NCBI GenBank assembly: GCA_019056805.1
Contig: DXJG01000002.1
Location: 191,053-223,052, forward strand
Reading direction: 5' to 3'
Length of the DNA: 32,000 nt
DNA from: Candidatus Baldrarchaeota archaeon
GTDB taxonomy: Archaea > Asgardarchaeota > Baldrarchaeia > Baldrarchaeales > DXJG01
The position numbers were made by a program, and so were the translations under genes. Within the stretch, counting starts at the first letter, position 1; every line of letters starts with the position of its first letter. The notes beneath the pieces were generated by a model. That model worked only from the letters and a program-made list of their open reading frames with translations. It made no database searches and was not told the origin of the DNA. Below are positions 18,754 to 24,832 of this stretch, in pieces.

Positions 18754-18976
18754 TTTTCTCCCTCTTTTCGAGGTCTTTTAATAACATCAAAAATATATAA
18801 ATTGTTTCTATATTTTCATCTGGGAAGGAAACAATTAGTTAAACTATGAAATTACCGTATTACGAGCCGTATAAAAAGTTTATGAATAGACATTTATTCA
18901 ATAAACCTACCAATTATATGGCAAAATCTTTTTACACATAGTGCACATTTTTAAGATTAATTACGGGGCGAGTAAC

Positions 18977-19351
18977 ATGTCTGGCAAAGTGAACCAAATA
19001 AAGCAAATACTCCAACTCTTAGAGATAAACACACCAGGAATCGAAGCCAGCGCTATAGTATCTCTTCAAGGTCTGCCAATAGTCTCTGCCATGCCAGCAG
19101 GTGTAAACGACGATGTAGTCGCTGCAATGACAGCCGCCGTACTCAGCGTAGGCGAAAAAGCCTTACAAGAATTAAGAAAAGGAAGACTAGTAAAAATATT
19201 GGTTGAAGGAGAAGAAGGATACATAATAATGACAACTATCGGCCGAAACGCCATACTTACAGTTCTAGCCAAACAATCCGCAAATCTAGGGCTAATTTTC
19301 CTAATGATGAAACAAACAGCCCAAAAAATAGAAAATCTCCTAGCAGAATAA
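18977..19351 (+). CDS. Roadblock/LC7 (MglB-like) domain protein
   Basis: PGIEASAIVSLQGLPIVS, VAAMTAAVLSVGEKALQEL, VEGEEGYII and NLGLIFLMMK. Likely ATG at 18977. Confidence 0.9.
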   Translation: MSGKVNQIKQILQLLEINTPGIEASAIVSLQGLPIVSAMPAGVNDDVVAAMTAAVLSVGEKALQELRKGRLVKILVEGEEGYIIMTTIGRNAILTVLAKQSANLGLIFLMMKQTAQKIENLLAE

Positions 19352-19454
19352 ATTCACGACATTTAAACCTAAATTCTTAAGTATCACGTAATGCGAAATT
19401 ACATTTTATGATCAAATGTTATGATATCTCTTTTTCATAAATATAAGAATTATA

Positions 19455-19520
19455 AGGTTCAGTCCGCCCGTCGTCCACATCCACGAGGTCAGTACTGCAA
19501 TGGAACATCATCACCCAACA
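19455..19520 (-). ncRNA. Box C/D guide sRNA predicted to direct 16S rRNA Cm1402 (E. coli numbering)
   Basis: Minus strand: C GTGATGA (19514-19508), D' CTGA (19492-19489), C'-like TGGATGT and D CTGA (19462-19459). D guide CGACGGGCGG is complementary to CCGCCCGUCG. Confidence 0.85.
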
Positions 19521-20154
19521 TACGATACAAATACTATTAACGGTTGTTAACTAATAAATTTATCTTACCGGGTTCTGTTAACTTACTGTTGGTATAAAGA
19601 CTCACGGATATACGAAGTATCGAATGAAATAAAAGACTTGAGCTTAGTCGAAGATGAAGATGTTTGTACGTTGTTAGGCTTTTTCATAACCTATAATCTT
19701 GGACTTAAAATTTCTTCATCACACCTTTTGGTTCTTCGATTTCTCTATCTATTGCTTCAATACACCCTTTGATAAGCATCCTTAATTTTCCTGGTCTAGT
19801 TCTTTCATATTTTTAGATAGATTTTTTCTTGTTACCAATGCAGGAAGAGGTTCACTAGGACTTGATGATAAAACTGTACCTGGAGCCGAAGGAGGGTCTG
19901 AGAGATCAACAGCCGTAATAACCAAACTGTCTCCTAACATCCTTAACATTCCTTAAAATGGACGGTTAGGAGAATGGTGGTTAGTAGTAAAGATTTTCGG
20001 AAATATATATTCTATAAGGAGGGCAAAAATCTTGCCACATTAGCAACTAGAATCATAAGTGTGGAGAAAATCTGAATGAGCGAGAATAATTAAAATTCCA
20101 AAGGGCCATGGGTGTTAAGTTGCCTCTGATGACACAAAAAATGTGAGGGAGTGG

Positions 20155-22254
20155 TTAAAGTTCTGGATTTATGAGAAGTCCTGCCTTCACAAGTTCGAGC
20201 TTGTTCTTTAACTCTGTTATTCTATTGTGCAACATGAGAAGTCTTGACGCAGAAGTTAACAGTTTTGCTCCGAGCGCAATGTCCTGCACGAACCCCAAAA
20301 CCATCATGAAGGTACTAAAGGTTTCACTAACATTTCCCAGTACTCTTTCAACCAAAAGTTCAATGAAGCTTTCCCAACTTTCTTCTATGGCCTGATATAG
20401 ATCCATCATGAATGAATAGTCTATTTCTTCCATCCCCGGTATTGTGCCCAGTAATAGTTTCTCGATTCTTTCAGTCAACATTTCCCATGCCTCTTTATGT
20501 AGTAAAAGTTCCTTCATGTATTCTCTCGCCACTCTAGCTAGTTCTTTGGTGATCCGTTCGATGTCATGTTGCCTCTGTTTCTCGAGATCCGTCCTGTCCA
20601 ACTCTTCTTGTACTCTCTGTATCTGTTCGGAAAGTCCACTCTCCTTCAATATGTCCTCGACATAATCTATCGGTTCATCCACAAGTTCTTTCAGAGGAGT
20701 TGAGAGTTCTTTATCTATCATTTCGTGATCTATCTTAAGCATGCTTTTCAGAAATGACAAGAAGGCCACTCTCAGTACCGGATTCACCTGCAAGGCGTTC
20801 TTGTTTGTCTCGTACATTTTGACGAGATCTTCTTTGGTTTTGATCGTCCGCATAAGTTTGTCCTGTAAGGTCCTGATGGTCATCCTAGTAGGTTCATCGA
20901 TCTCTATGGGTTTTACTATTTCCTCAGGAGCAGCAAGTTTTGGTGGCTTCAGCTTTGTCGCCTTTGATGCAACCTCTTTCAACTTCCTTACCTTCTTTTT
21001 GACTTTCTTAGGCTTAGGTGGTTTGGGCTTTTTCGGCTTGGCAATCACTTTCTTCTTTATACGAACCTCCACTTCCCTCTTCGGTTTCTTGGGCACCCGC
21101 TCGACTTCCGGTTTCGTGACCTTTGTTGCAATTTCTTTCGGCAATTTTACCTCAATTTCCTCTATTTTCACTTTACTTTTTATTTTATTCACCATTGCTT
21201 TTTCGATATCACTTATCGGTGGTATTATTTTCTCGATATCGCATTCTTCTGGTGCCATCTTCTTCTTTGCCTTCTTAACCTTAACAGTATACTTAATATG
21301 ATCCTTAAAGGAATTGGTGGGAAGAGGTGGTATTTGTTGCACTCGTCCATCCGGAGTGATACTTATATTATAAATCTCTTCACTGACGACGGTATGAATC
21401 TCATCACACTCAACAATCAACGGAAATCCGACAAATGCCACCTTACCAGTGGCTTTACACTCACTTCTAGAAATGGAAAAAGTCTCAAACTTACCGCCGT
21501 CCTTGGCGTGGCCTCTGTGTATGTTCCTTTTGTGCTCAAATGATTCATACGTAAATTCATATGCGCTTATCGTAATGTCTTCAGAAATTTGGTAGGGAAT
21601 CTTTTTCCCCAACTTTATTGTCAAGTGAAAATCTCCTGATACTGTATCATAAACGGACATTCCAGCTTTTTCGGATCTGCCTTCGGAGGATATGGGTTTC
21701 TTTATGGCAAAACTTTTTCCTTCCTCAAATGGGAGTAGCTTTTCGAAGTCCGAGTAGTAGACAGAAACATTGGAATACCTCTTAACAATACCAGGTGCGT
21801 GTAGAATCCATAAAGTTCCATAAGGACTCCCACTAGCCCTAGAAATCTCTTCCATAATTCCCTTATCCGATTTTATTGATACATGTTTATAAGCCTCCAT
21901 ATGATCTCCGGATACTTCAATGAATATCTTCCGCTTAGTCCTAGAACCAGCAAAACTGGTAATAGATGTATATGTCCACTTATATTCGTCGGGTGAGACG
22001 TAGTATATTCTATGATGGCCTTCAGTGTTTGCGATATAAAAATTATCCTCTAAGATCAGCAGTCCTTTTTCATCAAATATTTGTCTTAGTTTAGGGTGCG
22101 CCAGTTCATAGAATTTCTTATCACCAGATGTCAGAACTCTCACAGTATACTCTATTATATCTTTTAAAACAAATGATCGCTCTTTACTTTGCCATTCTCT
22201 AATACTGGTCTTGACCAAGATGTCCCCACTTTCCAGTTCGAACATCTTGTACAC
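20155..22254 (-). CDS. Hypothetical 699-aa protein (beta-rich N-part, Lys/Pro-rich linker, helical C-part)
   Basis: Long uninterrupted ORF with a GTG start and purine-rich RBS-like AGAAAG. No family recognised. Confidence 0.85.
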   Translation of the reverse strand: MYKMFELESGDILVKTSIREWQSKERSFVLKDIIEYTVRVLTSGDKKFYELAHPKLRQIFDEKGLLILEDNFYIANTEGHHRIYYVSPDEYKWTYTSITSFAGSRTKRKIFIEVSGDHMEAYKHVSIKSDKGIMEEISRASGSPYGTLWILHAPGIVKRYSNVSVYYSDFEKLLPFEEGKSFAIKKPISSEGRSEKAGMSVYDTVSGDFHLTIKLGKKIPYQISEDITISAYEFTYESFEHKRNIHRGHAKDGGKFETFSISRSECKATGKVAFVGFPLIVECDEIHTVVSEEIYNISITPDGRVQQIPPLPTNSFKDHIKYTVKVKKAKKKMAPEECDIEKIIPPISDIEKAMVNKIKSKVKIEEIEVKLPKEIATKVTKPEVERVPKKPKREVEVRIKKKVIAKPKKPKPPKPKKVKKKVRKLKEVASKATKLKPPKLAAPEEIVKPIEIDEPTRMTIRTLQDKLMRTIKTKEDLVKMYETNKNALQVNPVLRVAFLSFLKSMLKIDHEMIDKELSTPLKELVDEPIDYVEDILKESGLSEQIQRVQEELDRTDLEKQRQHDIERITKELARVAREYMKELLLHKEAWEMLTERIEKLLLGTIPGMEEIDYSFMMDLYQAIEESWESFIELLVERVLGNVSETFSTFMMVLGFVQDIALGAKLLTSASRLLMLHNRITELKNKLELVKAGLLINPEL

Positions 22255-24475: not shown

Positions 24476-24775
24476 ATGCAGAAAAAAGAAGATCTAGAGA
24501 AAATTTCAAAGGCTATTTACGAAGAACTGCAACGTTTAGACCTGGAGAACATGCTTGTAAATGTCATAAGGTCTTTAGTTAAAGAAGTTTTAGAGAAAAA
24601 AATTACGTCAGTGATAGACGATATAGATTTTCCATTACTTTTAAAAACTGCCATAAAGGAAATATTAGAACCAATTATATTAAAGTCGGTTGAAGAATCA
24701 ATAGGTGAAAAATTACCGATTTTAAGACTAATAGAGGAAAGCAGAAAACGCGATGACCGTGAATTATTGAAATGA
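24476..24775 (+). CDS. Hypothetical small helical protein (99 aa)
   Basis: ORF directly follows PAC2 and has amphipathic helical periodicity. No family recognised. Confidence 0.7.
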   Translation: MQKKEDLEKISKAIYEELQRLDLENMLVNVIRSLVKEVLEKKITSVIDDIDFPLLLKTAIKEILEPIILKSVEESIGEKLPILRLIEESRKRDDRELLK

Positions 24776-24832
24776 TGTAAATCCGGTTCGCGGAGACATT
24801 TGTCGATGAAGATCCCCTACCTACTGATCAAT
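24765..24832 (+). ncRNA. Box C/D guide sRNA candidate (16S central domain)
   Basis: C-like ATGATGT (24772-24778), D'-like CGGA (24791), C'-like TCGATGA (24803), D CTGA (24824-24827), and flanking ATTGA/TCAAT. AATCCGGTTCGC is complementary to GCGAACCGGAUU. Confidence 0.75.

Follow-up and report, generated by a model that had tools for sequence, protein, structure and literature searches.

Within the window (the whole 32,000-nt stretch analysed), positions 19514-19459 of the minus strand carry a full C/D'/C'/D layout of 56 nt from box to box. The intergenic region around it spans 800 nt and is bordered by a Roadblock/LC7 gene (18941-19351, plus strand; PF03259), which is convergent with the element and served only as a synteny marker, and by a 699-aa ORF (20155-22254, minus strand). 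No Pfam or NCBIfam family matches the latter, the middle of which is rich in Lys and Pro and the C-terminal third helical and charged. Read 5' to 3', the element consists of a box C with the exact consensus GUGAUGA (19514-19508); a 15-nt D' guide (19507-19493), whose conserved core CCAUUGCAGUA occupies 19503-19493 and whose N+5 base is C19497; an exact box D', CUGA (19492-19489); a short spacer; a degenerate box C', UGGAUGU (19483-19477); a 14-nt D guide that includes CGACGGGCGG (19476-19463; N+5 base G19467); and an exact box D, CUGA (19462-19459), with a conserved ACC directly after it. Archaeal C/D sRNAs are defined by terminal C (RUGAUGA) and D (CUGA) boxes within 50-70 nt overall, by internal D' and C' boxes and by about 9-12 nt of complementarity with a Watson-Crick pair at N+5. 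All of these are present here, with the complementarity scored against the 16S rRNA of relatives, and the guides are slightly longer than the usual archaeal 10-12 nt. An AT-rich box of the UUUAUUAG type, noticed by eye at 19551-19558 (minus strand), 37-44 nt upstream of the C box, is a possible TATA element.

The host is a Baldrarchaeia-related Asgard archaeon, since a methionine aminopeptidase near the locus and its counterpart in Ca. Baldrarchaeota Yap30.bin4.67 are 90% identical and form a group with 100/100 support. In two congeners, the element is found at the same locus (L001 and L002) beside the Roadblock gene, and the sRNA and the gene form one alignment block of 77% identity. Across the three members of the genus, 51 of the 56 box-to-box bases are invariant, while the flanks are unrelated and do not align. 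Both congeners retain the four boxes, the D' core and the D guide. The changes comprise two bases at the 5' end of the D' guide, a differing spacer with a 1-nt indel and, in the D guide, one C-to-U that retains a G-U wobble and the unpaired base before box D. The strict four-box pattern occurs at 3 places in the 1.92-Mb host genome and at none in each of 10 shuffled genomes, and the G+C content of the sRNA is 55%, against 34% in the surrounding intergenic DNA. Minimum free energy folding (z 0.24) was uninformative, as expected for a C/D RNA, and the Rfam search gave no match at the element up to an E value of 5, the curated C/D families sR1-sR60, SNORD43 and snR70 included. The element is very probably a real, previously unannotated box C/D guide RNA of an Asgard archaeon.

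The same host genome has other C/D sRNAs that match rRNA. Within the window, a second one (24768-24829, plus strand) lies just behind a 99-aa ORF and has a weak Rfam sR42 match; its D' guide has 10 Watson-Crick pairs with GCGAACCGGAUU, which lies on the loop side of helix 24 of the 16S, at about E. coli C783, and its D guide is similar either to 16S GGUAGGGGU or to a site in the 23S. Further C/D layouts were seen at C9:293982 (-), C9:407591 (-), C9:111940 (+) and C17:103805 (-), the first three having a 16S match for at least one guide each.

The pairing of both guides was scored on the rRNA of relatives, the host assembly (91% complete) containing neither 16S nor 23S. No 16S was found in three congeners (G001-G003) either, so the nearest relative with part of its 16S available is G004, from the same order as the host. 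A scan of the metagenome for 16S carrying ACUGCAAUGG returned nine archaeal 16S contigs, all with A1408 and 79-85% identical to that of G004, none of which could be attributed to the host. The D guide forms 10 Watson-Crick pairs with 16S 1399-1408 (CCGCCCGUCG), a sequence present in 28 of the 29 Asgard 16S read. The fifth base upstream of box D, G19467, pairs with the C in CCG-C-CCGUCG, corresponding to E. coli C1402, the nucleotide at the start of helix 44 that contacts the P-site codon. This site was the top D-guide site in every rRNA set scanned, and shuffled guides equalled the match in 2-4% of trials; the 16S stretch that this reading requires of the host is CCGCCCGUC. The initial annotation had described the four-box layout on the minus strand and placed the D+5 position on C1402, and both the boxes and the register proved correct. 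It is highly likely that the D guide directs Cm1402, and our confidence in this assignment is higher than for methylation at 1236.

No target had been assigned to the D' guide in the initial annotation. This does not hold: the full 15-nt target that had been sought occurs only at the sRNA itself, and only the 3' part of the guide is conserved. The four bases at its 5' end differ between congeners and have no pairing partner, and the conserved 3' 10-11 nt pair with 16S 1233-1242. In G004, the pairing with GCUGCAAUGG comprises 9 Watson-Crick pairs and one G-U pair, and the target, CUGCAAUGG, places N+5 on G1236 (E. coli numbering), at the end of helix 30 and 165 nt upstream of C1402. No Nm counterpart of this position is known in yeast. 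Against the G004 23S and partial 16S, the best sites of the two guides are 1402 (D) and 1236 (D'), and no site in the 23S or among the 18 host tRNA genes was better than these. The D' match is weak by itself: in 3-5% of trials, shuffling yields a guide with 9 contiguous pairs across N+5, and the permissive pairing score is reached by shuffled guides in 36-47%. Support for the assignment comes from comparison with an sRNA of Ignicoccus hospitalis and its counterparts in Thermoproteota. CUGCAAUGG is found in 10 of the 29 Asgard 16S, that of G004 among them, and position 1236 is G or A in most. Given this variation, and given that the host base is not in the assembly, we consider Gm1236 to be a probable product of the D' guide, with less confidence than for Cm1402.

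The sRNA in question, Iho sR11, was detected by RNA-seq (Dennis et al. 2015, PMC4644070, Additional file 1) and has been named as a possible C1402 guide (Seistrup et al. 2016, PMC5389701). The predicted target of its D guide is alignment position A1223 (PMC4644070), the same column as the D' target of the Baldrarchaeia sRNA; with an offset of 13 (position 1395 of that alignment is E. coli 1408), this is E. coli 1236. The two RNAs thus have both guides in common, with identical N+5 registers, but in swapped order, sR11 having its C1402 guide at D' and its 1236 guide at D. They also differ in the target base at 1236, which is A for sR11 and predicted to be G here, and the C1402 guide of sR11, which contains a G-U pair, was left without a prediction by Dennis et al. 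The sR11 arrangement was detected in 20 of 351 Thermoproteota genomes (control, 1), with a C/D layout in 18 of them, one of which is I. hospitalis by sequence and position; the guide order of the Baldrarchaeia sRNA was found in none of the 351. The three counterparts with a readable 16S combine A1236 with a guide U, whereas the Baldrarchaeia guide has C, as the G1236 of G004 requires. Rfam returned only generic, weak sR1/sR3 matches for the counterparts.

The proteins needed to use such a guide are encoded in the host: fibrillarin (C9:91152), Nop5 (C9:90344) and an L7Ae-family protein (C10:38007), with the three genes also present in all four relatives tested. RsmI (TIGR00096) and RsmH (PF01795) were absent from searches of the host and these relatives (G000-G004), in which the bacterial controls were all positive, and RsmI was found in none of 111 Asgard genomes. 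These results favour the initial proposal of RNA-guided rather than RsmI-dependent modification, and no N4-methylation by RsmH is expected, given that neither enzyme was found in G000-G004. On the strength of the layout, its conservation, the pairing with the 16S of relatives, the protein genes and the negative RsmI and RsmH searches, we consider it likely that the element is an archaeal dual-guide box C/D sRNA of about 60 nt that methylates 16S C1402 through its D guide and G1236 through its D' guide. From the established N+5 rule we infer that the RNA is transcribed, forms an RNP and directs methylation: L7Ae would bind both the C/D and the C'/D' motif, on which Nop5 and fibrillarin would assemble, each guide would pair with pre-16S rRNA, and fibrillarin would 2'-O-methylate the target of the fifth base upstream of each box, C1402 via the D guide and G1236 via the D' guide. 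Both positions flank the P site and are 166 nt apart in E. coli numbering. By analogy with Neq sR15/sR17, for which a chaperone role has been proposed, a similar role of this sRNA is possible.

A related reading accepts methylation of C1402 and assigns the D' guide mainly a role as second anchor or folding chaperone at 1233-1242, without methylation, for instance if the host has A1236 and hence an N+5 mismatch. Conserved N+5 mismatches have been recorded, including that of Pyrobaculum sR25 at 16S C1368, and 1236 is not G in most of the Asgard 16S read; moreover, the D box after the 1236 guide has decayed in several Thermoproteota counterparts, as would be consistent with pairing being more important than methylation in those RNAs. 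All three Baldrarchaeia copies, however, have a perfect CUGA as D' and the same C at N+5, and G004 does have G1236, which makes this explanation unlikely. Still less probable is that C1402 stays largely unmethylated despite pairing of the D guide at 1399-1408, or that D' aims at another RNA such as a tRNA, the 5' part of 16S or 23S. Cm1402 is sub-stoichiometric in I. hospitalis, only 18 host tRNA genes could be compared, one of them, for tRNA-Arg, having a 7-nt match, and in one distant Asgard 16S the permissive D' score is higher at another site. Against this, no 23S site of G004 outscores the 16S sites, and the combined 1236 and 1402 pairing was found again in 18 other genomes. A chance motif or a piece of a small peptide gene is largely refuted: a 31-aa ORF (19419-19514, minus strand) and a 39-aa ORF (19421-19540, plus strand) exist mechanically and the element lacks an Rfam match, but either ORF would be frameshifted by the 1-nt indel that both congeners have between D' and C', conservation ends at the boxes and the shuffled genomes held no four-box layouts.

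Turning from the dual-guide sRNA itself to the C1402 guide alone, the corresponding pattern was detected in 126 of 400 Asgard genomes, many of them by chance; L117, L118, L140-143 and L352-361, for example, lack a C/D layout and were discarded. Real layouts were recognized by eye in G004, in families f5 (17 loci), f21 (four read), f8 and f28, in one genus of f12 and in Culexarchaeum. In the Hodarchaeales-like family f21, the pattern is present in 21 of 22 genomes (control, 2), and the aminopeptidase of CP070695.1 groups with Hodarchaeota records. All of these layouts have the C1402 guide at D, with differing partner guides. A phylum-wide search for the 1236 guide followed by a CUGA box recovered real sRNAs only in the host genus, where this partner is confirmed. 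An identical 22-mer in G363 (L316) has no C', D or second guide and was treated as a chance match. One candidate in f28 (L344, G194:C794:3470-3640) carries its C1402 guide at D, and its D' guide, UUCAUUGCGAUU, would hit 1236 in the same register if the 16S of that genome has AUCGCAAUG there; the 16S of G449 and G194, sought for guide-target covariation, was not found.

Other partners were seen alongside the C1402 guide. The 17 sRNAs of f5 (L123-L139) have a common conserved partner guide, CAACGGUC, with no target among the rRNAs examined, and the sRNA of G004 (L119, G004:C61) combines the C1402 guide with a D' guide that can pair with UAAAGGAAUU of the 16S, at about E. coli 910-920, and that is like one of the guides of Iho sR09. 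In f9, the largest Asgard family sampled, the C1402 pattern occurs in only 6 of 135 genomes, near chance, and the guide may be absent there or may have other wobble variants or boxes. Outside Asgard archaea, Sac-sR122 of Sulfolobus acidocaldarius and MKAsR114 of Methanopyrus kandleri (PMC4644070) have GAUGGGCGG directly before a D'-like box, in the C1402 register as read here, but their second guide is unrelated; Sac-sR122 is listed without a prediction (PMC4644070).

As for the origin of the shared guide pair, the GGAUGU variant of C' ahead of the C1402 guide and the 14-nt guide length are common to the Baldrarchaeia sRNA and 8 of the 18 Thermoproteota counterparts, a hint of common descent through circular permutation, for which Mka sR88 provides a precedent among archaeal sRNAs. 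The C1402 module is identical to that of the counterparts at up to 22 of 25 bases, most of which are fixed by the target and the boxes. Because the target and boxes dictate most of the shared bases, and because the C1402 guide has a different partner in the nearest relative beyond the genus, convergence or transfer may also account for the pair. A broader scenario, which we regard as tentative and on balance doubtful, is that the Baldrarchaeia RNA is a circularly permuted homologue of Iho sR11, the 1236 and 1402 dual guide having been inherited from the common ancestor of Thermoproteota and Asgard archaea (or exchanged between vent archaea) and retained to hold the 16S head and decoding site together during assembly, and that the Asgard-wide C1402 module would be the archaeal forerunner of snR70/SNORD43.

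Other archaea are already known to have Cm1402 itself and a guide RNA that aims at both sites. Cm1376 of Pyrococcus abyssi, the same nucleotide, was mapped by experiment and is tabulated as an archaeal-eukaryotic feature (PMC7005279), and Cm1402 was detected in Nanoarchaeum equitans by RiboMeth-seq, with no guide found there (PMC5389701); in both, the likeness to the present case is in the ribose methylation rather than the guide. In I. hospitalis, methylation of C1402 is below 50% although sR11 is expressed (PMC5389701). Cm1402 touches the codon in the P site, and yeast that has lost it shows more readthrough and frameshifting (PMC2794176). The yeast snR70 (18S Cm1639) and human SNORD43 (18S Cm1703), correctly named in the initial annotation, are C/D guides for the homologous nucleotide; they are longer RNAs to which the Baldrarchaeia sRNA has no Rfam match, and the likeness lies in the target site. 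Bacterial RsmI/RsmH (m4Cm1402) act on the same nucleotide and also produce the 2'-O-methyl, but as a protein-only system. Given that Cm1402 has been mapped in P. abyssi and N. equitans and that sR11 had been proposed as its guide, RNA-guided modification is no special eukaryote-like trait of this lineage, and the surprise implied in the initial annotation is unsupported. What is new is the 1236 target of the D' guide, the swapped guide order and the spread of C1402 guides in Asgard archaea, on whose C/D sRNAs our literature search found no paper. These data add a target for an orphan guide, a small family with 18 Thermoproteota counterparts that is not described in Rfam, and a list of Asgard C1402 guides of use for work on snoRNA origins. 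They leave unchanged the published view that ribose-only methylation at C1402 is archaeal and eukaryotic, with which the Asgard guide fits, filling a gap between Pyrococcus, Ignicoccus and eukaryotes.
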